In this document: positions 4,935 through 25,152 of the stretch, piece by piece
Numbering within the stretch: the stretch's first letter is position 1
Layout: each line of letters begins with the position of its first letter
Origin: Candidatus Latescibacterota bacterium
GTDB lineage: Bacteria; Latescibacterota; UBA2968; UBA8231
Direction of reading: 5' to 3'
Length of the DNA stretch: 64,000 nucleotides
NCBI GenBank assembly: GCA_965248355.1
Contig: OZ252098.1
Span: 1,390,098 to 1,454,097 of the forward strand
Position numbers and translations under genes: made by a program
Notes under the pieces: model-generated
What the model saw: the letters and a program-made list of their open reading frames with translations, nothing else
What the model was told of the DNA's origin: nothing
Database searches by the model: none

Positions 4935-5019
4935 GGCCAGGGTAGCCGGGGGCCCTTTGCGGGCAGCCGAGTCCCCGTGGGTCTCGTCAGCCCGGGGTGC
5001 CCGACCTCCTACCGAATCA

Positions 5020-5240
5020 GGCCGAGCTTTCCGACCCGGACCTGCTTGCCGGCGACGAGGCGGTAGAGGTACAGCCCCGAAGCGAGGGGCGGCCGGCTTC
5101 GTCGGTGCCGGACCAGACGCGGGTGTGAAGCCGGGCGTCAGGATCTCGCCGCGACCAGTTCGGTGACCCGCTGACCCGCGGTGTTGTGAATGGCCAGAGT
5201 CACCGGCGCGGCCTCCGGCAACTGGAAGCGCAAGGTGGTT
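5020..5240 (-). pseudogene. Degraded C-terminal remnant of a T9SS/FlgD-Ig-like C-terminal sorting-domain protein
   Basis: Minus-strand translation gives '...VTLAIHNTAGQRVTELV...' and 'SGLYLYRLVAGKQVRVGKLGLIR*' across two frames, with an internal stop. It resembles the intact CTD at 62794–63402. The remnant abuts the IS256 left end. Confidence 0.4.
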
Positions 5241-5409
5241 TCGGAGTTTCTTCGCTACCCTCGAAACCGACTTGCCGGACCGTCATGAGCTACTATCGAA
5301 AGGTGTGGAAAAAGAGAAAAGGCGACCCTACCCTTCCTAATTAGCAGCACACCACGAACGGCCCGGGTGACGCCGGGCCTGGAAGGAGAGAGTCGCCGTG
5401 AAGGAATCT

Positions 5410-6774: not shown

Positions 6775-6806
6775 AGGAATCTACGCTGGCGTTCCCCCCC
6801 GCGTCC

Positions 6807-7136
6807 ATGCCCAGTTGGGAGACCTTGGAAGGCTGGGCTCGCTCTCAGATCCAGGACCTGCTGCAGCGAGTGTTGGAGGAGGAGGTGACCGAAGTGCTGG
6901 GGCGCACGCGGTATGCGCGCCGATCGGCGGTGGACGGCCCTCCGGGCTCGCGCAACGGCTATGGCAAGCCGCGGCGGCTGTCCCTGATGTCGGGCACCAT
7001 CGAGGTAAGACGGCCGCGGGTCCGGGGGCTGGAAGAGCGCTTTGAGAGCCGCATCCTGCCGCTGTTCCAGCGACGCACCCGCGAGGTGACCCAGCTGTTG
7101 CCCGAGCTCTACCTGCACGGGCTGTCGCAGGGCGAC
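6807..7136 (+). pseudogene. IS256-family (Mutator-type) transposase, N-terminal fragment cut by the IS3 insertion
   Basis: 'NGYGKPRRLSLMSGTIEVRRPRVRGLEERFESRILPLFQRRTREVTQLLPELYLHGLSQGD' is a typical IS256 N-terminus. The reading frame is broken after GD at 7136. Confidence 0.7.
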
Positions 7137-7194
7137 TGGAGTTGCCCCCGTTTGGTGGACATCCCCGATATTTGGGCAAAAGGAGGATGTCCTC

Positions 7195-7509
7195 ATGCCA
7201 CAGTCTCACCGTCCGTATCCGCCTGAGTTCCGCCAGCAGATGGTCGAGCTGGTGAGAGCCGGGCGGACCCCCGAGCAGTTGAGCCAGGAGTTCGAGCCCT
7301 CGTCCCAGGCGATTCGCAACTGGGTGCGCCAGGCGGATCGCGACGAGGGGCGGGGAGCCGAGGGAGTCACCCGCGCCGAGCGGGACGAGTTGCGGCGCCT
7401 GCGCCGGGAGAACAAGCGCCTGCGCACGGAGCGGGAGATTCTGTCAAAAGCCGCCACCTGGTTCGCTCGGGAGGCCGATTCGAGGTCGTCGAGGTCTTCG
7501 GATTCGTGA
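7195..7509 (+). CDS. IS3-family transposase OrfA (HTH)
   Basis: 'ELVRAGRTPEQLSQEFEPSSQAIRNWVRQ' HTH motif and a leucine-zipper-like C-terminus. An RBS 'aaaggagg' precedes the ATG. Confidence 0.8.
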   Translation: MPQSHRPYPPEFRQQMVELVRAGRTPEQLSQEFEPSSQAIRNWVRQADRDEGRGAEGVTRAERDELRRLRRENKRLRTEREILSKAATWFAREADSRSSRSSDS

Positions 7510-9185: not shown

Positions 9186-9403
9186 TGCGGGATCTGTTCG
9201 CCATGAAGCGGATCTTCCCGGGCCCTCCCGGGACCAGCCGGTGCTCTCCCGACCACCCGGTCTCTCGCACCGGGCCGGGGCGCCACACCGGTACCCCGAG
9301 CTCCACCCGGGCTCCGGGGCCGGGGTACTCCCACTCTACAACTTCCACATTCGGCAAAACCTGCCGAAAGCACTTAACTGTCCACCGTACGGGGGTAGCT
9401 CCA

Positions 9404-10254
9404 GACTTCGAGTTGGCCTTGCGGGGTCTGCTGGGGGGCGCCCCTGTCGGCCTCGTCCATCGCCCGTCTGCGGGCCACGTGGGAAGAGCAGTTCGAGACC
9501 TGGCAGCAGCGGCGGCTGGACGACCGGGAGTTGGTCTACGCTTGGGCCGACGGTATCTACGTGAAGGCCGGCCTGGAGAAGGACAAGGCGGCGTTGCTGG
9601 TCGTCATCGGAGCCCTGAGCGACGGCCGCAAGGAGATCCTGGCGATCCGTGCTGCGCGATCTTCGGGACCGCGGGCTGCCGGCGCCGCGGTTGGTGCTGG
9701 CCGATGGCGGCCTGCCGATCTGGAGCGCCGTCGACCAGGTCTGGCCCGAGGCCGCGCAGCAGCGCTGCTGGAATCACAAGATCCTCAACGTGCTCAACGA
9801 CCTGCCCAAGCGCGTGCAAGGCGCCGCCCGGGCGCTGCTGACGCAGATCCCCACGGCCAAGACCCGTCTGCAAGCCCAGAGACGACGCGACCGCTTCGTG
9901 GCCCGCTACGGCGAGGCCTATCCGGCCGCGTCGGCCACCCTCGAGCGCGACTGGGAGCGCATGGTCACGTTTTGCGACTTCCCGGAGGCGCACTGGAGGC
10001 ACCTGCGCACCACCAATCCGGTGGAGAGCCCCTTTGCCTCGGTCCGTTTGCGGACCAACGCGGGCAAACGCTACAAGCGGGTACAGGGAGCCACCGCCCT
10101 CATCTGACGCGTGCTGAGGGTGGCCGAGACACGATTCCGCAAGCTCAACGCGCCGGAGCTCCTGCCGGCGGTCTACGCCGGACGGAGATGCCAGGACGGC
10201 CAACCCGTCCAAGGGTTGTCCTCCACCGAGGAAGGAATCAAGAGGGCCGCCTGA
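9404..10254 (+). pseudogene. IS256-family transposase, C-terminal portion (frameshifts and an in-frame stop)
   Basis: Three frames carry, in turn, 'DFELALRGLLG', 'LVYAWADGIYVKAGLEKDKAALLVVIGALSDGRKEILAI', and 'CWNHKILNVLNDLPK...FPEAHWRHLRTTNPVES'. A TGA lies at 10105–10107 where a W is expected. The conserved tail 'RVLRVAETRFRKLNAPELL...' continues to 10254. Confidence 0.7.
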
Positions 10255-10627
10255 TCTCGTTTACACACCTTTTGACAGGACCTCCCGTCAGCGATTTGCC
10301 TGACGCCGCTGCAGGCCTTCAAGAAGGGGGTCCCAACCAAGCCCCGAGCCAAGGAGGCTGCCATGCAGAAAATCGCCGCCTAACCCTCATCCCCGAGCAG
10401 GGGCGAGTGTCAGGTCATTACCGTCACTGTAAACCCCGAGCCCAGGTCATTACCATCACTGCACACCAGTTCGTTAACCCTCTGGCGCTCGCGCAGGGCC
10501 TCCAGAGCCACCTTGGCTCCTTGACCTGTGCCGAATGCGTCTTCTTCCTCGCCATCCAGGCCCCTCCGGACAGTGGTTCGGTGCACGCAAAGTCTCGCTT
10601 AACCACCTGTCCAGGACTTGGGGTGCA

Positions 10628-11809
10628 TCACTGCCGCCGAGTTCTACCTGCGTTCTCACACAAAGACCGCAGTTCCTTAACTCGATCCAGCATGTCCAGA
10701 TCCCTGTAGGCATTCATCGCACCGTGCCATTGGGAAATGGCCTCTGGCACTCTGCCTATCCGGACGAGAAAGTAACCAAGGCTTGAACGCGAGTGTGCCA
10801 CTCCCTCCTGATTCCCCTCTAGTTGGAAAGCCTGCACTGCGGCACGCCACAGCTTCTCCGCCTCTCTCACATCCCCGCTTTCAGTACTTAATGATGCTGC
10901 GCGCGCATACACCACTGCCGGTGCCCTCTCCCCCGCAGCCTCGTAAGAGTGTAATGCTTCAATCACCAGTCGGTCCGCTCTACGGGCCTCCCCTGATCTA
11001 TCACATATCCAGGCTAACCTCACGGCCGCCACTGCAACGTGCAATGGGCGCTGCAGAAGTCGCAAGACCCTGAGTGCTTCCTCGAACCTGCCCCGAGCCG
11101 ACTCCCACTCCCCCCGTTCTGCGTGAATGTTGCCAATCTGCAAAGCCGTTAGGCCTTGAACGACCGACGGCTCCGCGTCTCTCAGCAGAGAGATCGCTCT
11201 GAGTAGAGCGCGCTCTGCCTCAGTCTCTCGCGATGACTCTAGGAAAAGCATGGCCAAGTCATGATATCCTCCACCCCTTGCCTCCTTACTCTCCTGTAGG
11301 CGGATCGCTGCCCTTAGCCGCTTCTCTGCCTCCAGCAGGCGACCCTGCCGTCGATATACATTGCCCAAGTTCTGTTCATCTACGGCCTGTGCGGCTCGAT
11401 CTCCAACCCCTCGGTGCCATTCGAGTGCGTATCCATGAAAAAGCTCCGCATCGTCCAAGTTCCCCTCAGAGCTTGCCAGCCATCCTAGGAAGCTGTAGTT
11501 GGCGGCAAGCCGGCCCTTGTCCTCTAGGTTCTTGTTGATCTCATAGGACTCCCAGACAAACTTCTCCGCCTGGATGCGGTTTCCTCGAGCCTCCTCTAGG
11601 TAGGCAAGCTCCAGGCACGCATCCGCAAAAATCCGCATCTCCTTCCCTTCAGAGGCAATCTCTCGGACTCTGCTCGCAAGCTCAGAACACCTTGCTAGGC
11701 CCCCCGCTTGCCTCTCTTGCTCCGCCTCCTTCAACCACTCCCTCAATTGCTGGACAGAACCAGATACGCGCTCCCTCTCAAGCCTTCGTGATTTGATGGA
11801 TCGACTCAC
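10628..11809 (-). CDS. TPR-repeat protein
   Basis: Repeated 34-aa units with W/LG/Y...A...A...P patterns through most of a 393-aa ORF. Local GC is about 56%. Confidence 0.55.
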   Translation of the reverse strand: MSRSIKSRRLERERVSGSVQQLREWLKEAEQERQAGGLARCSELASRVREIASEGKEMRIFADACLELAYLEEARGNRIQAEKFVWESYEINKNLEDKGRLAANYSFLGWLASSEGNLDDAELFHGYALEWHRGVGDRAAQAVDEQNLGNVYRRQGRLLEAEKRLRAAIRLQESKEARGGGYHDLAMLFLESSRETEAERALLRAISLLRDAEPSVVQGLTALQIGNIHAERGEWESARGRFEEALRVLRLLQRPLHVAVAAVRLAWICDRSGEARRADRLVIEALHSYEAAGERAPAVVYARAASLSTESGDVREAEKLWRAAVQAFQLEGNQEGVAHSRSSLGYFLVRIGRVPEAISQWHGAMNAYRDLDMLDRVKELRSLCENAGRTRRQ

Positions 11810-12337
11810 TGTCTATTGCCCATAGCCCAAACTGACTGCGAAGATTGGACATTCCGCTACGTCGAGGATACCTGGCGTTCTTGAAGAAAAAGAGAAGAGA
11901 GGATGGCCTCTTCCTTTGGGACGAAGAGTTGCACGGGGACGGAATGAACACGGGCTACCCACCAGCAACCCCACCCTGAGGACGCTCACCGCTTGCCGGC
12001 ATTCGCACTGACCCGTCTGAGCCGGACTTCGGCGCCGTCGATGGCGGAACGATTCTCAAGCAAGCGGCCGGTCCATGCGAACCCGCCGTCGGGGAGAGCT
12101 CCTGCGGTGCGGACCATGAATCCGGGTGGGAGTGCTACAAGCGAGTCCAGAGGGCGACGAGCTCTCATGTGCCGGGTCCTGAGAGTGGAGCAACGATTCC
12201 GGAAGCCCAACGCCCGCGAAACTCTTGGCTGCAGATCTGCGCCGGTCGGAGATACCAAAGGCGGCCAACCGTTCCAGCAGGGGGCCTCAACCAAGGAACG
12301 AAGTCGAGGGTCGCCCGATCTCCTTCTTGGCCACACC

Positions 12338-13855
12338 TCAGAACGGCGTCCAATCTGGGTCCCTGTCTTCCCCAGGATGGTCGACAATATGCTCTTCGGC
12401 ACCCCCCCCTATCGAGATCACGTAGATATCAGAAGCCCCTCCGTCTGCCGAGGAATAACCTGCGAAAGCTACCCGTGTGCCATCCGGTGCCCATGTGGGC
12501 GACCTTCTCAAGGACCTATCGACAGTGAGTTGTCTGGCCCCTCCGCCATCGGCCGCCATTACCCACACATGGCTCTCGGCGGGCCTGAGCTGCTCGATAA
12601 AAGCGATTTGTGTGCCGTCAGGCGACCAGGAAGGATCCCAGACAGGCCAGTCGTTGGTGGAGAGGCGCCGGACATCACCGCTTGGTAGCTGAATGCGAAA
12701 GATGGCCGAGAGGGTGTCCCGCAAGCTGACATAGGCGATGGACCGGCCGTCCGGTGACCACCTCGGATTGAAGGCACTCACCGGATCAATGGTTAGCTGC
12801 TCGGCGTCGGTGCCGTCGGCCTTCATCACAAAGATATCCGTGTTGTAGAAGCCACTTCCTTTCCGTTGCTCGCGCTCACCGTGACGATCCGATGCGAAGG
12901 CGATTAGCCGACCGTCAGGCGACCAGCAGGGATGCCCGTCCCACGCCTCGTGCTGGGTGAGGTTTATCGGCTGGCTGCCATCGGCGCGCATCAGGTAGAT
13001 CTCGGCGTTCCCATCCCTAAACGAAGTAAATGTCACTCTCAACCCGTCAGGCGACCGAGATGGATGAACTCCGTTCCCCGCCCCCGCTCCGTTTGGAGCA
13101 GGCTTCGTGCTATCCGGTTGCGAGCCATCCGATAGGGCGGTCATACTCAGAGCGGCGGACAGATCGGTGACCTCTCCTGTCTCCAGATCGAGAGAGTATA
13201 GTTCGAGATCGCCTCCAGGGATCGACCCGCTCCGCCGGCTTGAAGAGAACAGCAACTGCGTCTCCCTCAAAGGCGCGACATCGTCATTGGTGAAGCCTGA
13301 CCACTCCGGGGGTGCCTCGAAGTCCACGGTGACGCCCCGTTCACGCAACCCGGCCAGAAAGACCGCCGTTTCCCTGCTCAGCGGATTGCCAGCCAAACCC
13401 AGGCTCTGGAGGCTGTCCAGTCCCGCCACCGCCGACACATCCCGCACCCCATTGTCCGCTAGCAGCAGCACCTGCAACCGCTTGAGCGACGCCAGCGCCG
13501 AAATGTCCTCGATCCGGTTGCTCTCCAGATCGAGAAAGCGAAGCTGCTGCAGTCCAGCCAGGGGAGAGATGTCGATGATCTCGTTGTGGGAGAGGTCCAG
13601 GGCCTCGAGCCGCGTAAGCTGTTCGATCCCGCCCAACTCGGCGATGCCCCGGTCCTCGGCACTCAGGGCGGTCATCTCCGCGCCCGCTTCAGACTCATGG
13701 ACCGCCGCCTGCAGCGCCGAGTCCCGGAAGGCTAAGGCAACTCGGCCGGTTCCACCCGGGTCGGGTCCGCCTGGTCCACGACGGCTTGACTCGCAGCACG
13801 TAAGGGCGATCAATACAAGAAACCCCGTTGCCTTGATGCCCCATGTCGGCGCCAT
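12338..13855 (-). CDS. Secreted leucine-rich-repeat plus PD40/TolB-like beta-propeller protein
   Basis: Signal-peptide-like start 'MAPTWGIKATGFLVLIALTC'. LRR units 'LDLSHNEIIDISPLAGLQQLRFLDLESNRIEDISALASL...'. The C-terminal half has repeated 'SP/WSPDG..IAF' PD40 motifs. Confidence 0.6.
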   Translation of the reverse strand: MAPTWGIKATGFLVLIALTCCESSRRGPGGPDPGGTGRVALAFRDSALQAAVHESEAGAEMTALSAEDRGIAELGGIEQLTRLEALDLSHNEIIDISPLAGLQQLRFLDLESNRIEDISALASLKRLQVLLLADNGVRDVSAVAGLDSLQSLGLAGNPLSRETAVFLAGLRERGVTVDFEAPPEWSGFTNDDVAPLRETQLLFSSSRRSGSIPGGDLELYSLDLETGEVTDLSAALSMTALSDGSQPDSTKPAPNGAGAGNGVHPSRSPDGLRVTFTSFRDGNAEIYLMRADGSQPINLTQHEAWDGHPCWSPDGRLIAFASDRHGEREQRKGSGFYNTDIFVMKADGTDAEQLTIDPVSAFNPRWSPDGRSIAYVSLRDTLSAIFRIQLPSGDVRRLSTNDWPVWDPSWSPDGTQIAFIEQLRPAESHVWVMAADGGGARQLTVDRSLRRSPTWAPDGTRVAFAGYSSADGGASDIYVISIGGGAEEHIVDHPGEDRDPDWTPF

Positions 13856-14027
13856 GTTTGGGGCAATTCCAGACTTGCCCCTACAGGCGTCTTCTTCTCT
13901 CCCCCCGTGCGTCCCTTTCCGAAACCGTCTTGAACCCGTACAAATTGGATACAAGCCGATCATGCGGGGACCTCATGCCGATGGCTGGAACCCGCACTCG
14001 AGGGTACCCCTCCCACCTCGCTCTTCC

Positions 14028-15680
14028 TTAGAAGCTTCCACACTCCGGTTCCTCTATGTCCAATACGAAGCCTAGCTGAGTTGCTAGGCCTCGTCGCACT
14101 TCCCCAAGCCCTGCTCTAATCTCGGACGCTCTCACTCTCCGGGCAATTCGGCCATCTAGCCTAGCTATCAGGCTAATCGAATCTTCCGTCGCGCTCCCCT
14201 CCTCCCCCAACGAATGAAGAACCTCCCGCAGCAATGCAGTTCCCTCTAGGACCCGAAGCCGTGGATTTCTCTTTGCCCTAGCAAGCAATTCCTCTCTGCG
14301 CTGGACCGTCTCTTCTCTTCCTGCTCCAACGGGTACTAGGCTCCTGTATAGAGAATCAACCGAGACTCCCCTAGCCTCCGCTGCCGCTCCTACTGCGTAT
14401 GCTTCCGCAAACTGACTAGTCGCCCTAACTATCTCCCGGTACACCATGTGATCGTGTTCACACACTTCCTCCATAGGTAGATCTGATGTTGAAACAGTCC
14501 CCTTCGCAGATACCGCAAGGGTATCAAGGCGCCGACTCGTGGCCAGCAGCCCTGGTCCATCGCCTTCCACCGCACGTGCCATGCTAGCCCTCAAGACCCC
14601 GACCGTAATCTCACCGCGCACTCTCCTACCATTGACAAAAACGGTGGGCGTAGCACGAACGTCACATGCATGCCCAATTGCCATGTGGACACTTAGAGCA
14701 TCGCTCAATTCTCCCTTGTCTCGCACCTCTTCATAGCCCTGCGAAGCTATCCCTGACTCCTCTATCACATCCCAAACGACGCCTTGATCAAGCATCCCTC
14801 GATGGCCCATCAGACGGTCATGGAATTGCCAAAACACTCCCCGTTCCTCTGCAAAAATGGCCGCCTCATGCGCCGGAAAGGCGTTCTCATGAAAGGGTAG
14901 GGGAAAATGGATCAGTTCAAGCCTGACCATTCCCGGATCCTCACTAGCTAACACTTGCACCACGGAGTCAGCCCTAGCGCAGAACGGGCACTCGTAGTCG
15001 TAGAACACGGTCAATCTAATGGGCGCTCCGACGTCGCCAAACCCTGGGGCCACCTCCACCGGGCTTCCGAGGGCCTCACACCTAGGGCCCAGGGGTCGCC
15101 TTATCAGATACCGCACACCAAAGCTCTCGCGAAGCTTGCGCAGAAGAGAAGCTCTCTCACTCCGCAAGTACTTTGCCGTCAGGGCCTCACGCACCAAGAC
15201 TAGGAACCCCCGACTGGGATCATCCCAAACTCCCAGCCGGCTCAACAGCCGTCCCCGCTCCCTAGCGCTTGACGTATCAAACCTTCCTGAGGACCTCAGA
15301 TCCTCAATAATCCCCCACAGCCGCTTTTCCACCTCGACATGAATTGCACTTCCCAGATTGTTGGCGGCCAGCTCATCGGAGAACAGAACGGAATCCACTA
15401 GCTCCACTTGGCGATCGAAGATCGAGTCCTTCGTGGAAATCACCCGAGCATCCTGCACCATCTCTTCATAAATTTCCAGGTCACCTACTCGGCCCACAAA
15501 CCGAGACTCAGCGAAGCTCCGCACTCCCGACCCCGAGCCTGCCAAGAGCAAAACGACCAGCCACACCAACGGCAGCCGGCCCACTCGACCTCCTGGAGTG
15601 AGAAACGCCCGGAAATACCTACCCGCCTCTCCGCAGCAATGCCGATGCCCATGGTTCACCTTCCCCCTGGCTTCTTCCAT
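14028..15680 (-). CDS. DsbA-like thiol:disulfide oxidoreductase (thioredoxin-fold) protein with an N-terminal TM segment
   Basis: Thioredoxin 'YDYECPFCA' (CPFC) active site. An N-terminal TM 'LPLVWLVVLLLAGSG' follows the chosen start 'MEEARGK'. Confidence 0.55.
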   Translation of the reverse strand: MEEARGKVNHGHRHCCGEAGRYFRAFLTPGGRVGRLPLVWLVVLLLAGSGSGVRSFAESRFVGRVGDLEIYEEMVQDARVISTKDSIFDRQVELVDSVLFSDELAANNLGSAIHVEVEKRLWGIIEDLRSSGRFDTSSARERGRLLSRLGVWDDPSRGFLVLVREALTAKYLRSERASLLRKLRESFGVRYLIRRPLGPRCEALGSPVEVAPGFGDVGAPIRLTVFYDYECPFCARADSVVQVLASEDPGMVRLELIHFPLPFHENAFPAHEAAIFAEERGVFWQFHDRLMGHRGMLDQGVVWDVIEESGIASQGYEEVRDKGELSDALSVHMAIGHACDVRATPTVFVNGRRVRGEITVGVLRASMARAVEGDGPGLLATSRRLDTLAVSAKGTVSTSDLPMEEVCEHDHMVYREIVRATSQFAEAYAVGAAAEARGVSVDSLYRSLVPVGAGREETVQRREELLARAKRNPRLRVLEGTALLREVLHSLGEEGSATEDSISLIARLDGRIARRVRASEIRAGLGEVRRGLATQLGFVLDIEEPECGSF

Positions 15681-15688
15681 CTTGCTTT

Positions 15689-16474
15689 TCACTCCGTGAA
15701 ACGAATACCCAAGAAGGTTGCTGGGGCGAACAGCAAGGGCCCGGTGTCGGCCCATGTACTCCAATCTGAGAATTCTGGCCAAAATGAGTGCGCCGCGAAA
15801 TTTCCTCTCCAGATCTCACCTCTCGGTGCACCCGCCACGAAGAGGTCGCTAAACGGAATAGCCATCTCAACTACCCAGCTCTCCCTCATCCTCCCTACCC
15901 CAGTCAAGAGACCCTTCGCGTCCCACCGCACTCCATCCAAGAATGCCATCTCCACTAGAGTCTCGTCAGAAGGCGTTCCATCCCTTCGAATCTGCTCCAC
16001 CGCCTGCTCTGACGGCCACCACCTATCGTATACCAGATTGTCTGCATTCACACAGATCTGGAAGAAAGGACCACTTCCACTAGCTTCTGGCTCCAGGAAG
16101 ACTTCCACATCATCACTAGATAGCGCAATTTGCTCATCATCGCGCGCAATCCCTGCTCGTTTCACTTGCCCCTCAACACGATAGGGTGTCTGAAAAGACA
16201 CATAGAAATACGTAGAGTCAAACTGAACACACACATTCGTCCGAGCCATGGGCACGATGGCGCGGCCTGAGGTCGTCACCTTCAGATCAATACAACTTGC
16301 CCCTCCCCATTCCCCCGCACCTAGATCACCATCCACTCTTACCCCCTCAACGGCCACAGGCACTACCAAGTGCGGAGTGACTGTCCCGTCCATTGGCTTG
16401 CTCTCACCACTGACCATCCCGACTGAGCAGATGATCCCCCCGACAAGGGCCAATAGTACCGCATCCTTCCCCAT
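15689..16474 (-). CDS. Hypothetical secreted protein (possibly CBM9/DOMON-like)
   Basis: Start chosen at 'MGKDAVLLALVGGIICSVGMVSG' (signal-peptide-like). The long ORF extension upstream would overlap the neighbouring gene. Confidence 0.35.
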   Translation of the reverse strand: MGKDAVLLALVGGIICSVGMVSGESKPMDGTVTPHLVVPVAVEGVRVDGDLGAGEWGGASCIDLKVTTSGRAIVPMARTNVCVQFDSTYFYVSFQTPYRVEGQVKRAGIARDDEQIALSSDDVEVFLEPEASGSGPFFQICVNADNLVYDRWWPSEQAVEQIRRDGTPSDETLVEMAFLDGVRWDAKGLLTGVGRMRESWVVEMAIPFSDLFVAGAPRGEIWRGNFAAHSFWPEFSDWSTWADTGPLLFAPATFLGIRFTE

Positions 16475-16628
16475 CGCCAGTTTCCTCCCCTCTCTCCTTA
16501 CCGCCAGTTCCAACCCAGACGCCGAGGAGGCTCCCCCGGAAAGCAAGAAGAGGCGCGCGCGCTTTCCGACGGAGCCTCCCTTTTGGGCGTGCTCTGGCAA
16601 GTCTTGTCCTGGAACCTCCCAGATCCCC

Positions 16629-16934
16629 CTAAGGCACCAACACGCACTCCCAGTGGCAGAACATATCCACCATCGTATTTGGGCAATAGTAGGCATCTCC
16701 ATTGCTACAGGAGTCCAGCACTGGTTTCCAACTGTATTGGGAATTGCAGTTGTCGTCACACTGCTGCTGCGCCGTGCCGTATATGTCCGCAGGCACGTCG
16801 CAGTTGTAGGTGCTGCAACTCAACGCCGCGCCGCACCGATACGTCAAGGGCGTCTCACCACAGGTCGGGTTGTTTCCAGCAACAGGTACGGCCACGCCGA
16901 CATACGCGGCTGCCAACCCCAACCCAGCCATCAT
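16629..16934 (-). CDS. Small cysteine-rich secreted protein (12 Cys in about 80 mature residues)
   Basis: Signal-peptide-like 'MMAGLGLAAAYVGVAVPVAG' followed by a Cys-dense mature region (CGETPLTYRCGAALSCSTYNCD...CDDNCNS...CSNGDAYYC...FCHWEC). Confidence 0.4.
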   Translation of the reverse strand: MMAGLGLAAAYVGVAVPVAGNNPTCGETPLTYRCGAALSCSTYNCDVPADIYGTAQQQCDDNCNSQYSWKPVLDSCSNGDAYYCPNTMVDMFCHWECVLVP

Positions 16935-17113
16935 TCGGGAGACAACCCCCCGATTCTCCCTTGGGTCACCAGAAACGATTGCCATGTGCGTACTTCCCTC
17001 CCTCTTCTAAAGGGTTATGTGGAAAATGCCTCTCCAAAAAAGCGCGCGCCTCATAACCAGAATTCCCTCACTCACAGTCCAAGTGGTTGGCCTAGCCTTC
17101 TCAAGGCCAATCC

Positions 17114-18220
17114 CTAATCGTTCACTCCGTTCACTCTTGGATGATTCCTAAACACCACGGCCGCATCTTCCAAGAGTGCAGCCGAAGGCTGCACGTAGAT
17201 CTCGTGCAGATCCACTAGGGAAGGAATCCTCAATTCCTCTGGAGTCAACTCGTCTCCGAGAATGGCGGAGACCCACAGTGGAATCAGTAGGAACCGTTCA
17301 TCTCGGTGAATCTTCGCCATGTATTCTATTGCGCGATGCCACCTCGCCATCTGACTTCCGGCTCCTCCACTGCGTCTGCCTTCCTGATCATGATACAAAT
17401 GGTAGGTCCTAGCTTCTGATACATGGACGACGCCTACATCCGCCTGCATCAACCTGTACCCCAGCTCCCATCCCTCACTGAATTCAATCTGCTCATCAAA
17501 TCCCCCTACCTCCAGAAACGCACTTCTTGGCACCGTCACATTATGAGGAAAAAAAGCCACCCAGGCAAGTCCGCTGTCTGGCCAAGCCAGGAGAAGTTCC
17601 TCAATTTGCTTCTGTAGTACATCCTGCCCTGGAAAAGGATAGGCACCTTGCACGGACCTAGATCGTATCTTCTCGAAGTAACCTGTCACCATCTCAGGCG
17701 AGACCCGGACATCCAAAGATCCATCCCTCAAGTGTCGCTTCACAACGCTGGAGATGACGACATCCGCCTTCAATTCCCCACTCGTAGGGTCATCGACAAA
17801 CTCCAAGGTCGGTATACACCACAGACCTCCGGTCAACGCACAATGCCGGCGCATGTCGACAGTCCCCAAATAGACTTCCAACCATCCTGGGTCCGGAAGC
17901 GCGTCCCCATCCAAGAACATCACACACTCGCCTCGCGCCACAGACGCACCCACATTCCGAGCCTTACACCTCCCCTCTCTCTTGGAAAGACGCACTTGGC
18001 GTATCACTAGACCTTGGGACTTCCAATACTGCACCCTGACGTGGCTATTGTCATCGCATCCATCTAGGACCACTACAATCTCATACAGTTGCCTGCTGAC
18101 CGTCTGCGCACTAAGGCCAGCAAGAACCAAATGCAGTCGATTCTCCTGATTATGTGTAGCAATTACCACACTGGCCAGAGGACTCAATCGAGAATCTCCG
18201 CCTCCAGGTGGGTCCACCAA
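17114..18220 (-). CDS. Family-2 glycosyltransferase (GT-A)
   Basis: 'SVVIATHNQENRLHLVLAGLSAQT' and 'FLDGD' (DxD). The start was moved to a TTG or GTG near 18215–18220 to avoid a 112-bp overlap with the upstream gene, and is uncertain. Confidence 0.55.
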   Translation of the reverse strand: MVDPPGGGDSRLSPLASVVIATHNQENRLHLVLAGLSAQTVSRQLYEIVVVLDGCDDNSHVRVQYWKSQGLVIRQVRLSKREGRCKARNVGASVARGECVMFLDGDALPDPGWLEVYLGTVDMRRHCALTGGLWCIPTLEFVDDPTSGELKADVVISSVVKRHLRDGSLDVRVSPEMVTGYFEKIRSRSVQGAYPFPGQDVLQKQIEELLLAWPDSGLAWVAFFPHNVTVPRSAFLEVGGFDEQIEFSEGWELGYRLMQADVGVVHVSEARTYHLYHDQEGRRSGGAGSQMARWHRAIEYMAKIHRDERFLLIPLWVSAILGDELTPEELRIPSLVDLHEIYVQPSAALLEDAAVVFRNHPRVNGVND

Positions 18221-20664
18221 GCCGAATCTTGGCTCTTCTTTGCGTCCGGCCTTGTCCACAGAACGTGGGGTATCTGTTTCACCGCGTTTGAGCAAACCAC
18301 TCGATGGAGGTCCAGACTGCCAAAATAGTACTCTTCGAAGGGGGCCTCCTCTTGTTCAGCTTCAGTCCTCAATCGTCTACTCTTGCAGTTTCTCCCGTTC
18401 ATCCCACCCAGTCCGATAACCATGCTGTGGAACTCCACAGAGAGCCATCTCCCTTCGACGAACACCTCCGCCCAAGTGTGAGCGAACGGTGTCTCCCTCC
18501 AGCCGCCACACACGAATCTGTGTCCCAGTGGATATCCAAGTAATGCTCCGCTGACCTCTCGAGCAGGGATGCCTGCCAAGCGACAGAGGGAAATGAAGGC
18601 TCGAGCAGCGGTTATGCAATGCATCCCGGAACCCCCATCCAGTGCCTGATAGGTGCTACACTCCAAGCACTGGCAGGTTTCCTCTGTCTTCTCGAAGCGC
18701 TTCCCCTGCCTTATGAAGTCGTACAATGCCCGCGCCTTCTCAATGTCGCTCCCCGACCCAGCAACCCCCACTAGCACCTCTCTGATCCGCCGATCGTCCG
18801 CAATGGAAGGTGGCACCGACATGAACTCCCCACTGTACGGCGCTGCCAAGAGACCCACTTCCATTTCCCCGCTCCGAAGTGCGTTCACTCTCAAATCGCA
18901 GCAGTAGCCCACCTCCGCTGAACCACCCGGCTCCAAGTCTACCCCAAATCCATAGAAGAGACCGCAGGCCGAGAGTAGATGATTCCGCATCGCCTCTGGT
19001 TCCACCGACCGCAGTTTGATGTCCCGTTGTCGTCTATGCTGAATCGGGAATGGCACGAAGAGCAGAACTCTCCCGGAGGAAGTGCCAGCCTGCACCGATA
19101 CCCTATATTTGAGTCTCAGCACACAGCTGTCTTGTCTAGTCTGGACAGATCCCCGTTCTACAAAGAGGAAGCGTTGTCGCCTTGCCATTTGCGCGCGATA
19201 CTCCGCCTCGAAGAACGTCGAACTGTTTCGGTGCAACCAGTTCCACGATCGCAACAGGTCGTACGGGGTGGCAGACTCTTGACTAGAGGGCATACCCGCT
19301 CTCCTGGCCTCTGCAAGTAGTCTATGAACCTCACCCTTGCTTCCGAGCAACGGGTGCCCAATTCTCAGATATTTGACAAAGGTTGTCTCAGAGACTCGAT
19401 GTAAGCCGCCAGAGACCCCACTACGGGGATCCTCCTTAGGGTCGACCATTTCCTCAATCACTTGGGATACTCGGTCTACATTGTCCCACTCCCTGACGTG
19501 TCTCGAGAAGGCTCTGCATCGCTCCTCGTACTCCTGATTTTCGATTACGCGATCAACTGTCTTTCTAATTTCCTCTGCATTGGTCCACTGATTCCACTCC
19601 AGCTTAATTCCGAGACCAAGGCTACCTACTCGGTTTAGGTGGTACTCTTGATCAAGATGATCCGCCGCCCCGACAACCGGCACCCCACTCCGAAGAGCAT
19701 GGTATACGGTACCGGCGCCCCCTACCGTGATGACTGCAGATGCCTCTGCCGTAATCCAAGAAGCCGGTAGAAAATCCACTATCCGCACATTTCTAGATGG
19801 TGTAGTGGGAGCAGCCTCCCGGCTCCTGGGGCCTAACACGGTGCAGATAACACGATAGCGCTCCGAGAGCACGGAAAGGGTGTCTATCAGAAACCCCTCA
19901 AGAGCATGTCCCGTGCTGCCGCAATTGAGATAGATTAGGGGCAGGGTTGAGTCCCATCCATTTGAATCCAGGGTGACCACCTGGCGTGGCCGAGCAGGAA
20001 GGTCCAGCAGAGGTCCCACATAGTAGGCTCCCTTCCATTGGCCGGTAGGGTGGAACTGAGGCACATCCGCCACTAGAAGGCAGCTGCGCTTTCTCTTCGC
20101 CGGAGACGAACGGCATCTCCTCAAGTACTCCTCAAACGGCCCCGGCTCTGTCTCGAACCAGGTGGGAAGTTGAATCCTGTGACCGTAACTTGGGCTATTG
20201 TACGCGGCCTCGACCATGGCTAGATGGAGTCCCATGAGGCCAGCCGAGATTTGAAGGGTGGGCCGCATGTCACCAATTACGACATCGGGTCTGGTGTCCT
20301 CAATAACATCTCGTTCTGACTCAACGCAGGCATCGATGGACTCCATGTCGTAGAAGTCATACCTTGCAGATTTTATGGATCTGTCCATGGCTTCCTGAGA
20401 AAGGCTCTTCACATGCCGTACGGGGAAACCATGGTCCTTCACCATTGCAGAATTCACTCCGACACCGGCAAACTCAACATGGTGGGTTCGCCTGCGCAAG
20501 AATCGCCCGATCTTTATTGGGCGCAACGTATGCGCCAAGGAGTCACCATGAAAGAACACCAGGACTTTGAGTCGCCGCGAAGGAACACCGGAAGAAGTGA
20601 ATCTCGGGATGAGCCTTTCCAGGCTCTTCTTGGCTCTCTGGGCCAACTGGGCTGATTGGATCAC
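18184..20664 (-). CDS. Fusion protein: GT1 (MGT/UDP-glycosyltransferase-like) N-terminal half plus a transglutaminase-like cysteine-protease domain C-terminal half
   Basis: GT1 C-terminal domain 'VDFLPASWITAEASAVITVGGAGTVYHALRSGVPVVGAADHLDQEYHLNRV'. C-terminal transglutaminase core 'CQCLECSTYQALDGGSGMHCITAARAFISLCRLAGIPAREVSG...HTWAEVFVEGRWLSVE' (Cys-His-Asp). Local GC is about 52%. Confidence 0.55.
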   Translation of the reverse strand: MIQSAQLAQRAKKSLERLIPRFTSSGVPSRRLKVLVFFHGDSLAHTLRPIKIGRFLRRRTHHVEFAGVGVNSAMVKDHGFPVRHVKSLSQEAMDRSIKSARYDFYDMESIDACVESERDVIEDTRPDVVIGDMRPTLQISAGLMGLHLAMVEAAYNSPSYGHRIQLPTWFETEPGPFEEYLRRCRSSPAKRKRSCLLVADVPQFHPTGQWKGAYYVGPLLDLPARPRQVVTLDSNGWDSTLPLIYLNCGSTGHALEGFLIDTLSVLSERYRVICTVLGPRSREAAPTTPSRNVRIVDFLPASWITAEASAVITVGGAGTVYHALRSGVPVVGAADHLDQEYHLNRVGSLGLGIKLEWNQWTNAEEIRKTVDRVIENQEYEERCRAFSRHVREWDNVDRVSQVIEEMVDPKEDPRSGVSGGLHRVSETTFVKYLRIGHPLLGSKGEVHRLLAEARRAGMPSSQESATPYDLLRSWNWLHRNSSTFFEAEYRAQMARRQRFLFVERGSVQTRQDSCVLRLKYRVSVQAGTSSGRVLLFVPFPIQHRRQRDIKLRSVEPEAMRNHLLSACGLFYGFGVDLEPGGSAEVGYCCDLRVNALRSGEMEVGLLAAPYSGEFMSVPPSIADDRRIREVLVGVAGSGSDIEKARALYDFIRQGKRFEKTEETCQCLECSTYQALDGGSGMHCITAARAFISLCRLAGIPAREVSGALLGYPLGHRFVCGGWRETPFAHTWAEVFVEGRWLSVEFHSMVIGLGGMNGRNCKSRRLRTEAEQEEAPFEEYYFGSLDLHRVVCSNAVKQIPHVLWTRPDAKKSQDSAWWTHLEAEILD

Positions 20665-20689
20665 TTTAGAAGTCCCTATTCCAGGCTCA

Positions 20690-20800
20690 TTCCGGGAATA
20701 CTCCTCGAGGCTCTCCCGGCCCCGGCCGTTGGCGACGGTTCCACGCCCGATGGACCGACTCCACGGTACCAGAGCATCTTGGGGCGCCCAGAGCCAAGAG
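20690..20800 (-). pseudogene. ISL3-family transposase fragment
   Basis: The nucleotide sequence 'ctctcccggccccggccgttggcgacg' and the translation '...GRGRESLEEY' parallel the ISL3 copy at 6090–6120 ('DGRGRESLEAYF'). Confidence 0.4.
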
Positions 20801-21389
20801 CGGGGTGACGTCTACGTGTACCATGAGCGCCGGAATCTCCCCCAACCGGGGAATGGCGCCATTCTGAACACGCGCGGCCGCCCCCCAAGTGCGTAATCCG
20901 CGGCCATCTTGGAGGTGCTAGGCCGAGCCCCGATGTGGGCGTCAGTGCGATGGGATCGATCAGATTTCCCACCCTGTGCGATTGAATGTCATGGCTCGCC
21001 ATCTGGCCTAGGCAGCCCTGGAAAGGGGACGCTGGCTTGAGAAATAGTAGCTATGGTGTGGCCTCTGACATTAAAGAGGCTCCGAGGGGAGGTCCTGTGC
21101 AATCGAGAAACCGAAATTAGGCGGTCCTTCTCAATCTCTACCGGTTGGCCGTCCTGGAACCTCCTTATATAAACCTCGGGCTAAGAGGTCCGTCAAGGGA
21201 CCACCCAGATTCGCGCACCCCGGATTTGGTCGGGGTCGGTGGTACCGGATCGGTTCTCCCCCTCCTGAGATGAGGTGCACCGAGAACGGGGACCTGCACC
21301 GCAAACCCCGGAGCGGCCCCCGGTCCAGCCAGTGACGCTTGGCGAACGAGGGAATGGGTGTGAGGGATGGTCTTGGCCTCCTTCCGCTC

Positions 21390-21540
21390 CACGTGTCATT
21401 CGGCCAGTTGCTGCTCCATGTCCCGGAGGCCGAAGCTACGGCCATTGATCTGCAGGACATCGCAGTAGTGCAGCAGTCGATCCCAGATGGCCGTGGCCAG
21501 ACCCGTCGGCAGCATCTCCGGCCATTGGCGGATGCTCTTC
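21390..21540 (-). pseudogene. IstB-like (IS21 helper ATPase) C-terminal fragment
   Basis: Minus-strand 'MLPTGLATAIWDRLLHYCDVLQINGRSFGLRDMEQQLAE*' matches the IstB C-terminal pattern 'AILDRLLHH..V..I.G.SYRL'. Confidence 0.35.
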
Positions 21541-21570
21541 TTGGAGGTGATCGATCAGGGTGCTGGCGCG

Positions 21571-22749
21571 CTGCTAGTGTCATGTCGTAGAAATTACTGT
21601 ACATCTTCATGAGGATGCTGTAGGTTTCTCTTATTCTCTTTCCGAAAGGAGAAACCTATGGCGAGGGGACGACCGTTACCGGCGATAGAGTTGAGTCCGT
21701 CGGACCGGGACCAATTGGAATCGATGGCCAGATCACGGAGTCTCCCCCACGGGTTGGTGCGCCGAGCCGAGATGGTTCTGCTGGCCGCCGACGGCTGGCC
21801 CAATCAGGCGGTCGCCGCCGCGGTAGGGGTGACGCGGGCGACTGTGGGCAAGTGGCGGCGACGCTTTCTCGAGGGCGGGCTGCCGGGCTTGCATGATGAG
21901 CTGCGTCCGGGGGCGCCGCGATCGATCACGGATGAGCAGGTCGCCGAGGTGGTCTACAAGACCCTGAAGACCAAGCCCAAGGACGAAACCCAGTGGTCGG
22001 TGCGCTCCATGGGCCAGGAAACCGGCCTGTCCAAGGATGCGGTACATCGCATTTGGCGCACCTATGGTCTGCAACCCCACCGACACAAGCACTTCAAGCT
22101 GTCCACCGATCCCTTCTTCGTGGACAAAGTACGGGATATCGCCGGGTTGTACCTGAATCCCCCGGAGCACGCCATGGTTCTGTGCGTGGACGAGAAGAGC
22201 CAGATCCAGGCCTTGGAACGAACTCAGCCGATGCTGCCCTTGGGCTTGGGATACGTGGAAGGGGTTACGCACGACTACAAGCGGCACGGCACCACCACCC
22301 TGTTTGCCGCCTTGGACGTGGCCACCGGCGAAGTGATGACCCAGTGCAAATCCCGGCATCGTCACCAGGAATTCCTCCAGTTCCTACGCCACATCGAGAC
22401 CAACGTGCCCGAGGATCTCGATATCCATCTCGTCGTCGACAACTACGCCACCCATAAGCATGCCAAGATCAAGCGATGGCTGGCCAACCGTCCCCGGTTT
22501 CACGTTCACTACACCCCCACGTATGCTTCGTGGCTCAACCAAGTGGAGATCTGGTTCGGGATCATCACGCGCCAGGCCATTCGGCGCGGGTCGTTTCGGA
22601 AGGTCCCGGAGCTGGTCGAGCGGATCGAACGGTACACCGACAAGTGGAACGCCAAGGCCCGGCCCTTCGTCTGGACGGCGACGGCCGATTCCATCCTCGC
22701 CAAGGTCAAACGACTTTGTGAGCGAATCTCTGCGACATGACACTAGCAG
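21571..22749 (+). mobile_element. IS630/Tc1-mariner-family insertion sequence, intact
   Basis: Terminal inverted repeats 'ctgctagtgtcatgtcgtagaaatt' at 21571 match the reverse complement of 'gaatctctgcgacatgacactagcag' at 22724–22749. A single 360-aa transposase ORF lies inside. Confidence 0.7.
21658..22740 (+). CDS. IS630-family transposase (DDE_3)
   Basis: Winged-helix N-terminus, '[12 protein letters not shown]' and '[17 protein letters not shown]' DDE-region motifs. RBS 'aaaggag' upstream. Confidence 0.85.
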
Positions 22750-22846
22750 TCCGTTGGAAAAAGGCGAGGGATGAGGGAGGTACCAACTCCCCTCGTACGG
22801 GTCCTTTACTAGATTAGGCAGGCCACGTACCCAAGGAGCCGGATCG

Positions 22847-24284
22847 ATGTCGCTGAGCCGACGACCCGAGAGCCAGCAACAGGAGATGTGGGTGCCGACC
22901 CACACGCTGCCGGAGGCGCCGGGGTGTCCGTTCTACACGCAACTGATTCAGTTGCTGCTGGCGGCGCATGGGTTTGACCGCTTTGTCGAGTCTCGGTGCG
23001 CCCCGTATTACGCCGAGACGCTGGGCCGGCCGAGCATCGCGCCGGGGGTCTATTTCCGCATGCTCTTGATCGGCTACTTCGAGGGCCTGGGCTCGGAGCG
23101 GGGCATCGCCTGGCGGGTGGCCGACTCGGTGTCGCTGCGCCGTTTTCTGGGCTACGCCCTGAGCGAGGCCACGCCGGATCACTCGAGCCTGACGCGCATT
23201 CGTCAGCGTCTGCCGTCGGAGATCTACCAGGAGGTGTTCAACTGGGTGCTGACCGTGCTGGCCAAGGAGGGGCTTTTGAAGGGCAAGACCCTGGCGGTGG
23301 ACGCCACGACCCTGGAGGCCAACGCCGCCCTGCGCAGCGTCGTGCGGCGGGACACCGGGCAAGGCTACCGCGAGTACCTGGAGGACTTGGCCCGGGCCGA
23401 AGGAATCGAGACGCCGACGCGCCAGGACCTGGCCCGGCTCGACAAGAAACGGCCGCGCAAAGGCTCCAACCAGGACTGGAAGCATCCCCGAGGATCCGGA
23501 GGCCCGCATCACCAAGATGAAGGACGGGCGGACCCACCTGGCGCATAAAGCCGAACACGCGGTCGATCTGGACACCCAGGCCTTGGTGGCGGTCCAGGTG
23601 ACCGGCGCCGACGAGGGAGACACCTCGTCCCTGTCTTGGACGCTGATCCAGAGCGATCTGAATCTGCAGGCCGTGTCGCAGGATCCGAAAGCCAAGAACC
23701 ATCTGCATGGCCAACCGATGTCGGAAGTGGTGACGGACAAAGGGGTATCACAGCAACGACACGACCAAGAGGCTGAAGGGCGCTCAGATTCGCGGCTACC
23801 TGTCCGAGCCCGACCGGGGGCGCCGTCGGTGGAAGGACCGGGCCGCCCAGGCGGCCGTGTATGCCAATCGACGCCGGATTCGAGGGCCCCGGGGCCGCGC
23901 CCTGCAACGGCGTCGAGCCGAATGCGCGGAACGCAGTTTCGCTCACACCTACGAACGCGGGGGGCTGCGACGGACGCACCTGCGGGGCCACGCCAACATC
24001 TACAAGCGGCTGAGCCTTCATGGCAGCGCCTTCAATCTGGGCTTGGCCATGCGGAAGCTCACCGGCTGCGGGACCCCGAGGGGTCTGCGGGCACTGGGGG
24101 CCGTTTTTTCGGTCTTCAAGGCGGGTTTGCAGGTCGCTCGGGCCCTCTCGCGTCGCGCCGGCGGCCTCTTCCTCACCTGGGTCCGGGATCGATTCCTCAT
24201 CCGTTGCCGCCGCCTTCACCCAGAGCGACCGGACGTGATCCAAAACGTGGCTTTCTCAACGGGCTGCTAGACCTCATGTATTGA
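22847..24284 (+). pseudogene. IS5/IS1182-family transposase, frameshifted (at least 3 frames)
   Basis: Frame 1 has the DUF772-like N-terminus '...YFRMLLIGYFEGLGSERGIAWRVADSVSLRRFLG'. Frame 2 has 'KDGRTHLAHKAEHAVDLDTQALVAVQVTGADEGD'. Frame 3 has '...AVYANRRRIRGPRGRALQRRRAECAERSFAHTYERGGLRRTHLRGHANIYKRLSLHGSAFNLGLAMRKL'. Confidence 0.65.
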
Positions 24285-25152
24285 CCGGTACATAAAGGTC
24301 TAGCGATGATTGATGACCTTGAACAGTAGGTGGGCCTTTGCGACCGGTCCAGGGCCCGGCAATCACGTCGGCGCTGTCGACGCTCCAGCACCAGAACTTC
24401 TCCGCGTACCCCACCACCAGGCGCGTGCCCTCGTCGTGGTCGACGTAGGGCGGGCGCGCCGGGCTGTACATGGTGTCGGTGAGGTCGCGGACCAGGGCCG
24501 TCTCCACGCCCCACTTGGTCATCTGCTTGATGCCGAAGCTGCGGTGGAGGACGCACATGTTGGTGTGCACGCCGAGGATCAGCATGCGGGTCACGCCGCG
24601 GGCCTGCAGGCAGGCGTAGACCAGGCGGCCGTCGTCGGAGATCAGGTCCCGCTCCGGATCGATGTCGATGCCGGGGTGCTGGCTCTTCCAGGCCTTGTAG
24701 GAGTCGTTCTCGGCCACGGTGGTGCCGTTGTCGGCGGCGTCCACCGGCAGGGGCGGGTCGTACTCGGCCGCCTCCCCGCCCGGGGCGAAGAGCTGCCCCA
24801 CGAGGGAATCGGGATCCTGGGCCGCCGCCGGCAACTCCTCCGCGGGATCTGCCGGCTCCGCCTCCAGGGCACGGAGGCGGGCCGGGTGCTCCGCGTAGAA
24901 CTCCATCGTGCCCGAGGGCGCGTGGACGATCTGCACCCCGGCGGCGCGAGCCACCGTCACCGTCTGATTCATGCGCGGCACCAGCGGCTCCATGCGCTCG
25001 CGGGCGCCGCGGCACCAGTGGCTGTCCCAGACGTCGCACAGCAGCAGGGCCGTGGCCGCCGTTGGCCACGCGGCCTCCTCCGTTACCGTGCGCCACACGC
25101 GGTGGCCGCCCTCGTCGAGGGTCAGCCGCTGGCGGCGCAGGTGGAGGTTCAT
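24274..25152 (-). CDS. Isochorismatase-family cysteine hydrolase
   Basis: 'LLLCDVWDSHWC' and 'LILGVHTNMCVL' motifs. Confidence 0.55.
   Translation of the reverse strand: MNLHLRRQRLTLDEGGHRVWRTVTEEAAWPTAATALLLCDVWDSHWCRGARERMEPLVPRMNQTVTVARAAGVQIVHAPSGTMEFYAEHPARLRALEAEPADPAEELPAAAQDPDSLVGQLFAPGGEAAEYDPPLPVDAADNGTTVAENDSYKAWKSQHPGIDIDPERDLISDDGRLVYACLQARGVTRMLILGVHTNMCVLHRSFGIKQMTKWGVETALVRDLTDTMYSPARPPYVDHDEGTRLVVGYAEKFWCWSVDSADVIAGPWTGRKGPPTVQGHQSSLDLYVPVNT

Follow-up and report, generated by a model that had tools for sequence, protein, structure and literature searches.

A GT1 glycosyltransferase fused to a transglutaminase-like module in Candidatus Latescibacterota, with a plausible role in RiPP-like peptide maturation

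The 64,000-nt stretch of DNA analysed here (the window), from contig OZ252098.1 of the Candidatus Latescibacterota bacterium assembly GCA_965248355.1, encodes an 826-aa protein in which a GT1 glycosyltransferase is fused to a transglutaminase-like catalytic module. The fusion recurs in related genomes with its active site residues conserved, together with a GT2 glycosyltransferase and a TPR protein and, in many loci, with small peptides that have a conserved leader and a variable core. Judging from the sequences, we see about an even chance that the fusion is a soluble cytoplasmic bifunctional enzyme of an uncharacterised pathway resembling those for peptides that the ribosome makes and that are modified after translation (RiPPs), and that together with the GT2 and TPR proteins it would glycosylate and process small exported peptides before their export. 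The gene and its parts are as follows, in window coordinates:

18184..20664, minus strand: gene of the 826-aa GT1-transglutaminase-like fusion, from a GTG start to a TGA stop at 18184-18186 (evidence: open reading frame (ORF), Pfam, homologues, conservation, AlphaFold2 model)
19435..20577, minus strand: GT-B (GT1) glycosyltransferase domain, residues ~30-410 (Pfam, Foldseek, PDB profile matches, conservation)
18187..19404, minus strand: C-terminal module, residues 421-826, made up of a helical region, a beta-sandwich and the transglutaminase core
18433..18762, minus strand: Transglut_core (PF01841), residues 635-744 (Pfam, conservation, TgpA profile alignment)
18616-18618, 18478-18480 and 18433-18435, minus strand: codons of the predicted catalytic residues C683, H729 and E744, respectively

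An earlier note on this DNA had described exactly this ORF as a GT1 glycosyltransferase joined to a transglutaminase-like domain, and the fusion is genuine: both domains are recognised by Pfam, and the GT1 fold by Foldseek as well. It is also one gene rather than two, because the ORF is uninterrupted and, over 93-98% of its length, aligns collinearly with about 100 homologues of ~830 aa, which rules out a merger of two genes or an assembly artefact. In the AlphaFold2 model of the full-length protein (built on 52 homologues; pLDDT 86, pTM 0.75), a low-confidence linker of residues 411-420 joins the GT1 domain to the C-terminal module. The public annotation of the source genome calls the gene at 734 aa, without the first 92 codons (20389-20664). 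The shorter call lacks FFHGxSLAH, a conserved motif in the N-lobe of the GT1 domain, and the start that gives 826 aa agrees with the family; the annotation has therefore probably placed the start too far downstream.

The N-terminal half comprises a complete GT1 enzyme. Three Pfam models for the GT1-type C-lobe score above their curated cut-offs (EryCIII-like_C, residues 279-384; UDPGT, 281-388; Glyco_tran_28_C, 244-382), in line with the MGT/UDP-glycosyltransferase-like C-domain that had been read from the sequence, and the model displays the two-lobed, Rossmann-like GT-B fold: residues ~30-410 superpose on YjiC, CalG1-4, OleD and SpnG with TM-scores of 0.7-0.8 to the target (Foldseek, E 1e-16 to 1e-18). 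A profile search of the PDB returned the same enzymes. The nucleotide-sugar signature (G313-G318 and D338-Q339-E340) is at least 90% conserved, as are H39 and H45 (FFHGDSLAHT) and D132 (D-M-R-P-T motif) in the N-lobe, where either His is a candidate base. The full GT-B fold and the C-terminal nucleotide-sugar motif are common to the fusion and the GT1 natural-product enzymes (YjiC, OleD, CalG1-4, MGT family). However, their sequence identity is only 15-20%, and the score for the macrolide glycosyltransferase subfamily (NCBIfam TIGR01426 MGT) lies far under its cut-off (58 bits versus 260, over the C-terminal 115 residues only). The fusion differs further in carrying a 400-aa transglutaminase-like module and in its acceptor, presumed to be a peptide rather than a macrolide or flavonoid.

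The C-terminal half is transglutaminase-like, as the earlier note proposed: PF01841 matches residues 635-744 with 54 bits against a 23-bit gathering cut-off, and the module has a papain-like alpha+beta core fold. Across 52 family members including the window protein, the catalytic and nucleotide-sugar residues are invariant or at least 90% conserved, with C683 (GMHCITAARAF), H729 and E744 among the invariant ones. In a profile alignment to TgpA, C683, H729 and E744 coincide with the Cys, His and Asp of that protein, respectively; a profile was required here, as a single-sequence search of the PDB with the C-terminal half gave only spurious MppJ matches. The predicted catalytic triad of the window protein is C683/H729/E744. 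The note had placed the active site in 'CQCLECSTYQ' and assumed a catalytic Asp. Neither detail holds: C664, C666 and C669 of that segment are not invariant, family conservation and the TgpA alignment both select C683 instead, and the acid in the window protein is Glu. At the position of E744, 24 of 32 members of the wider superfamily have Glu and 8 have Asp. The closest structures of the module are COG1305-type 'putative cysteine proteases' (3isr from Cytophaga hutchinsonii and the periplasmic domain of TgpA, 6g49/6g4h). These are stand-alone, membrane or periplasmic proteins without a glycosyltransferase, and their reactions are themselves undefined, whereas the window module has Glu as its acid and is enlarged by a helical region (421-500) and by an extension at the C-terminus.

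Among 5.8 billion proteins searched for the same fusion in other genomes, there were about 100 clusters of ~830 aa that contain both Pfam domains at 36-42% identity to the window protein, mostly from metagenome-assembled genomes (MAGs) of Latescibacterota and Gemmatimonadota. Scanning one genome per species gave 74 fusion loci (here and below, loci carry labels such as L001), mostly in Candidatus Latescibacterota, with some labelled Gemmatimonadota, Planctomycetota or Poribacteria, and often with three to seven copies of the fusion gene on a single chromosome. The window protein is a lone deep branch in a neighbour-joining tree of the 59 full-length fusion proteins. Both domains are already labelled by automated pipelines. 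For the fusion, its partners and the peptides, we found no curated family, solved structure or paper in Pfam, NCBIfam, the PDB or the literature, and NCBIfam returned only generic, sub-threshold GT1/macrolide-type matches to the fusion protein; nor did a characterised enzyme of this architecture turn up among curated families or in the literature, in agreement with the note, which was aware of none. RiPP-like glycopeptide maturation is a plausible function for this system, whose domains are known and for whose fusion, partners and peptides we found no earlier description.

Two partners accompany the fusion gene:

17114..18187, minus strand: GT2 (GT-A) glycosyltransferase, ~357 aa, TTG start (Pfam, homologous loci)
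10628..11809, minus strand: TPR_12 protein (28% identity to the TPR partner of homologous loci)

In 67 of 77 loci, the next gene downstream of the fusion encodes the GT2, and the two usually overlap by 3-13 nt. In the window, the TGA of the fusion gene overlaps the TTG start of the GT2 gene (TTGA), with GGAG 8 nt upstream. A TPR_12 protein is encoded in 58 loci, with its gene either adjoining that of the GT2 or placed upstream of the fusion; five loci combine TPR_12 and GT2 in a single protein of ~860 aa. The fusion, GT2 and TPR proteins contain no transmembrane-like segment. Matches of the GT2 in the PDB (phmmer against all PDB sequences, E<=1) include chondroitin synthase and ppGalNAc-transferases, and its top NCBIfam matches are EpsD and MftF, both far under their cut-offs.

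Within 10 kb of the fusion gene, homologous loci contain small ORFs in which a leader at the N-terminus, with a hydrophobic stretch that ends in an AxA-like motif, precedes a variable C-terminal core. Two classes, identified with leader hidden Markov models, occupy 42 loci together: class 1 (leader '...SSSG[LH]...RQGLxLGW...'; 48 ORFs in 23 loci) and class 2 (leader 'MKKRII...LPQKAEA' or 'MKRIF...LLPNQAKA'; 30 ORFs in 19 loci). Leaders are better conserved than cores, both overall (57% versus 28% identity in class 1, 54% versus 28% in class 2) and among the copies in one locus (88% versus 44% and 79% versus 42%, respectively), of which there are up to five. A conserved leader, a variable core and, often, several copies are generic hallmarks of RiPP precursors. 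The number of Cys residues is even in all 64 distinct cores (4, 6, 8 or 10). A third class, recognised by inspection of upstream ORFs, lies directly upstream of the fusion gene in a mixed clade without classes 1 and 2; it has no Cys, and most members share a C-terminal 'SYVQxG...WPxPxxE'. All-against-all clustering for further Cys-rich classes in the remaining clades yielded an antisense artefact only. Peptides are recognised in at least 45 of the 59 full-length loci, and no Pfam or NCBIfam model is matched by any of the three classes. Four clades of the fusion-protein tree carry only leader classes 1a, 1b, 2a and 2b, respectively: This match between enzyme clade and leader class holds even where paralogous systems share one genome.

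The surroundings of the peptide genes differ between classes. An FG-GAP/FlgD_ig gene of the type IX secretion system (T9SS) type starts at most 600 nt downstream of 34 of 40 short class-1 peptides, forming two-gene cassettes (L072/L078, L001, L002 and others). Class-1 leaders have a conserved SSSG motif before the hydrophobic stretch, and long forms combine a class-1 leader with repeated Cys-rich cores and a T9SS-like C-terminal domain (L073 5032-5805; L008 3747-4424; L053 3916-4908). Three class-1 loci (L001 656-4863; L002 4271-7241; L078 5900-8762) encode Peptidase_A24-like membrane proteins, one or two per locus, that narrowly exceed the Pfam cut-off, together with two AhpC/TSA-type thioredoxins and a ~200-aa protein whose SGATFS motif is FMN_bind-like. 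Class-2a peptides occur alongside ABC-2 permeases in cassettes that are repeated. At L077 (13613-22447), an ABC-2 permease (~545 aa), a ~180-aa protein, a class-2a peptide of 59-60 aa and a ~273-aa protein are repeated three times, a layout that resembles toxin/immunity cassettes; no ABC ATPase was detected at these repeats.

The module is not confined to GT1 fusions but has been joined independently to GT2 and GT4 domains and also stands alone. When 1.84 billion representatives were searched exhaustively by phmmer, the C-terminal half had 257 matches, many of them proteins of 680-770 aa in which the entire module follows an N-terminal GT2 domain; one 984-aa protein has the module behind a GT4 domain, and a few stand-alone forms have ~414-440 aa. 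The window GT2 is homologous to the GT2 domains fused with the module elsewhere (27-32% identity, E down to 1e-39): GT2 and module are therefore fused in one lineage and translationally coupled in the window. The triad is kept in 31 of 32 superfamily members. The exception is the GT4 fusion (P0252, L087 2724-5678, flanked by a stand-alone GT1 and by a GT2), which is probably a non-catalytic derivative since its catalytic Cys and His are replaced by Ser and Leu.

Two of the GT2 fusions are found in informative operons. In a lanthipeptide-type cluster (L085 4164-12636, also L086), the gene for P0293 overlaps that for a full-length LanB lanthipeptide dehydratase (E 7e-154) by 4 nt and is followed by a 422-aa protein of unknown function with weak similarity to the non-catalytic part of the module and by another GT2; a divergent ORF of 59 aa on the minus strand has a GG-ended leader and a core rich in Ser, Thr and Cys. 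No other protease and no LanC, LanP or LanT were recognised in the L085 operon. In another operon (L082 2219-8172, also L083 and L084), P0249 stands between a sugar aminotransferase of the DegT type with a GMC oxidoreductase on one side and a non-ribosomal peptide synthetase (NRPS) condensation domain, which comes after it; a 52-61-aa ORF lies upstream. From the contexts of P0293, P0249 and P0252, we conclude that the module is a recurrent partner of glycosyltransferases in peptide natural-product settings.

In the source genome, the fusion gene belongs to an island of seven intact genes, all on the minus strand (10628-20664), transcribed in the order fusion, GT2, peptide ORF, 262-aa protein, DsbA-like protein, LRR-PD40 protein and TPR protein. 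The island lies within an insertion rich in insertion sequences (IS). The remaining features are:

16629..16985, minus strand: 118-aa ORF, candidate substrate, made up of N-terminal extension, hydrophobic segment and 10-Cys core (Shine-Dalgarno sequence GAGGGAGGG 7 nt before the ATG)
15689..16477, minus strand: exported protein of ~262 aa, start inferred at MGKDAV (weak, sub-threshold CBM9_1 similarity, E 0.0025)
14028..15782, minus strand: DsbA-like thioredoxin-fold protein with an N-terminal hydrophobic anchor, start uncertain (Pfam)
12338..13963, minus strand: LRR and PD40 beta-propeller protein (Pfam), without a counterpart in homologous loci
4938..24363, no strand: strain-specific 19.4-kb insertion (empty site in L079, Pfam, GC)
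5666-6676, minus strand: ISL3 transposase (Pfam)
7506-9185, plus strand: IS3 transposase (Pfam)
9649-10107, plus strand: Mutator fragment (Pfam)
21658-22740, plus strand: IS630 transposase (Pfam)
22847-23548, plus strand: DUF772 transposase (Pfam)

The 19.4-kb segment is a strain-specific insertion because in the close relative L079 its flanks, 95-96% identical, stand ~35 bp apart as an empty site. The GC content of the island is 0.57, compared with 0.69-0.70 in the flanks and a median of 0.58 in Latescibacterota loci; named relatives of the flanking chromosomal gene are Latescibacterota and Gemmatimonadota MAGs. The 118-aa ORF is built like the leader-bearing peptides of homologous loci, follows a strong Shine-Dalgarno sequence and has a codon-usage score equal to that of the island's confirmed genes, the best of six frames. 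It shares N-terminal transmembrane-like hydrophobic segments with the 262-aa and DsbA-like proteins. The LRR-PD40 protein has a lipoprotein-like N-terminus and a codon-usage score (-0.08) unlike the other island genes, and a bona fide CBM9 protein is encoded upstream of the fusion gene in L077 (3294-4064). A scan of the island for promoters and terminators gave results at chance level.

We propose that the pathway would start from a precursor with a conserved, signal-peptide-like leader and a variable core, for which the 118-aa ORF is the candidate in the window. Before export, the leader would be recognised by a three-part cytoplasmic machinery consisting of the GT1-transglutaminase-like fusion, the translationally coupled GT2 and a TPR scaffold. 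The GT2 and the GT1 domain would transfer one or more sugars from nucleotide sugars to acceptors of the Ser/Thr type, and the Cys683-His729-Glu744 module would perform acyl-enzyme chemistry on the peptide, most likely endoproteolytic trimming of the leader or N-terminal sequence. After export, DsbA-like or thioredoxin partners would oxidise the even-numbered Cys residues to disulfides. Trimming is favoured by analogy with the lasso-peptide B/B2 leader peptidases (McjB, MEROPS C96), in which a transglutaminase-fold Cys protease removes the leader in a RiPP pathway (PMC10885120), and by the relative of the module in the LanB/GG-leader cluster; it is the weakest part of the model, because AxA-type motifs are already present in the leaders. 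The lasso enzymes offer a precedent for the role rather than kinship: membership of C96/Transglut_core3 was rejected, as Pfam gives PF01841 only, and neither RRE/PqqD nor a lasso cyclase (Asn-synthase-like) was present among the annotated neighbours of fusion genes.

The earlier note had suggested maturation of the adjacent Cys-rich secreted peptide, and this fares unevenly. A role in peptide maturation is favoured by the recurrent leader-bearing ORFs, by the match of enzyme clades to leader classes and by the LanB-linked relative. Cys-richness and adjacency are not general, as class 3 is Cys-free and class-1 and class-2 peptides lie 4-6 kb away; for the window peptide, no relatives were detected. 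Our model is further favoured by the intactness of both domains, the constancy of the GT2 and TPR partners, the stronger conservation of leaders than of cores, the even Cys numbers alongside thioredoxin or DsbA genes, the contrast between enzymes without transmembrane-like segments and peptide and accessory proteins with N-terminal hydrophobic ones, and the repeated fusion of the module to glycosyltransferases. In addition, the IS-flanked island has kept just this set together in a different genomic background: the fusion, its GT2 and TPR partners, a DsbA-like gene and an ORF that is Cys-rich and bears a leader.

Several observations weigh against the model, which is built on sequence and predicted structure. 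The median distance between peptide and fusion gene is 5.7 kb for class 1 and 4.0 kb for class 2, and these peptides pair most tightly with FG-GAP or ABC-2 genes, so the link between peptide and enzyme is made only at the level of the locus. Leader specificity of the kind seen in RiPPs would accord with the co-location within 10 kb and the exact clade-to-leader match, but less readily with such distances, and the match could in part be inherited synteny. In fourteen of the 59 full-length loci, no peptide could be recognised in the DNA retrieved. For the 118-aa ORF, a search detected no homologues, coding-potential support is only moderate, and no called gene was found there. Leaders of classes 1-3 end in AxA-type motifs typical of signal peptidase I, and a dedicated leader protease is therefore not obviously needed. 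Ribosomal peptides are not the only setting of the module, since P0249 adjoins sugar-tailoring enzymes and an NRPS condensation domain. Lastly, SunS and ThuS, the glycosyltransferases of glycocin biosynthesis, are absent from the PDB matches of the GT2.

Glycocins (sublancin, SunA/SunS/BdbA/BdbB/SunT; glycocin F) are among the closest known systems. Both they and the fusion loci have disulfide-rich ribosomal peptides, a TPR-associated GT2 and thiol-disulfide oxidoreductases in the locus, here AhpC/TSA-type thioredoxins in homologous loci and the DsbA-like gene in the window. They differ in that leaders of the fusion loci are signal-peptide-like rather than of the GG type, the window island has no C39 or ABC_tran gene and hence no C39-ABC transporter, the fusion loci contain the extra GT1-transglutaminase-like enzyme, and the phyla are not the same. 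A glycocin-type (SunS/ThuS-like) GT2 is unsupported by the phmmer matches. S-glycosylation of a spare Cys is disfavoured, as the even Cys numbers of the cores leave none. Soluble cytoplasmic glycosyltransferases are known to modify proteins that still bear their export signal, as in HMW1C/HMW1, the autotransporter heptosyltransferases and GtfA/B with serine-rich adhesins. Those enzymes, however, belong to other glycosyltransferase families, act on large adhesins and have no transglutaminase-like partner.

The same pathway could employ another chemistry, in which the module would catalyse transamidation or the transfer of acyl groups (as a true transglutaminase, a deamidase, a ligase that forms amide bonds or a PNGase-like glycoamidase) and would cross-link, cyclise, lipidate or edit the glycopeptide. 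We regard this as unlikely: 3isr and TgpA, the closest structures, come without a defined reaction, the peptide classes have no evident Gln/Lys pair conserved among them, and at the LanB locus the presence of a GG-leader precursor and of no other protease favours proteolysis. A different substrate is unlikely too. If larger secreted or surface proteins were glycosylated (the T9SS-type FG-GAP/FlgD_ig proteins, or the LRR-PD40 or CBM9-like protein in the window), the small peptides would be co-located partners; FG-GAP/FlgD_ig genes do fill class-1 loci, most short class-1 peptides stand directly upstream of one, some leader-bearing ORFs are long and end in a T9SS-like domain, and TPR domains often bind the protein substrates of glycosyltransferases, e.g. 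in OGT. Yet class-2, class-3 and window loci have no FG-GAP genes and keep small peptides, the class-3 peptide gene immediately precedes the fusion gene, and the LanB-linked relative points to small peptides.

It is rather improbable that fusion, GT2 and TPR proteins make or modify a glycoconjugate other than a peptide (a glycolipid, an exopolysaccharide or the sugar chain of a secondary metabolite) with the module in an anchoring or regulatory role. The GT1 domain does resemble glycosyltransferases of small-molecule natural products, EpsD and MftF are the best, if far sub-threshold, NCBIfam matches of the GT2, and P0249 keeps company with DegT, a GMC oxidoreductase and an NRPS C domain. But none of the three proteins has a transmembrane-like segment, the island encodes no flippase, polymerase or polyprenyl-phosphate enzymes, the invariance of the triad means that the module is not merely structural, and the match of enzyme clade to leader class would be left unexplained. 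That the gene in the source genome is a decaying, functionless passenger of an IS-mediated insertion is very improbable: the insertion is missing from the close relative, its transposases replaced the upstream neighbourhood, the island has no transporter and the fusion protein has a single database cluster, but the ORF has its full length and retains every residue that is invariant in the family, the stop-start coupling to the GT2 is preserved, and the seven island genes are all intact and co-oriented.

Returning to the peptide-maturation model, a bolder version of it is tentative and, in our estimate, rather doubtful as a whole: the loci of Latescibacterota, Gemmatimonadota and their relatives might define a new class of ribosomal natural products, in which a Sec-type signal peptide doubles as RiPP leader, TPR-held GT1 and GT2 enzymes glycosylate the variable cores, and the Cys-His-Glu domain carries out an undescribed step coupled to glycosylation, e.g. 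cleavage or transamidation that depends on it. Natural products of this class would be glycopeptides that are knotted by disulfides and keep diversifying, act as toxins or signals and are each paired with cognate partner genes.

If the model is true, the fusion would represent a new architecture, a fixed union of glycosyltransferase and transglutaminase-fold catalytic module that arose at least three times, each with another glycosyltransferase fold, and it would provide a concrete, testable substrate for the large and functionally opaque group of bacterial 'transglutaminase-like putative cysteine proteases'. The IS-flanked seven-gene island is a naturally minimised system and a convenient unit for heterologous expression. 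A signal peptide might be found to serve as a RiPP leader, and the loci would hold a large reservoir of variable, disulfide-rich and possibly glycosylated peptides whose diversification recalls that of conotoxins. The pathway would then be a so far unexplored route of peptide maturation, in phyla that have hardly any cultured members or known natural products.

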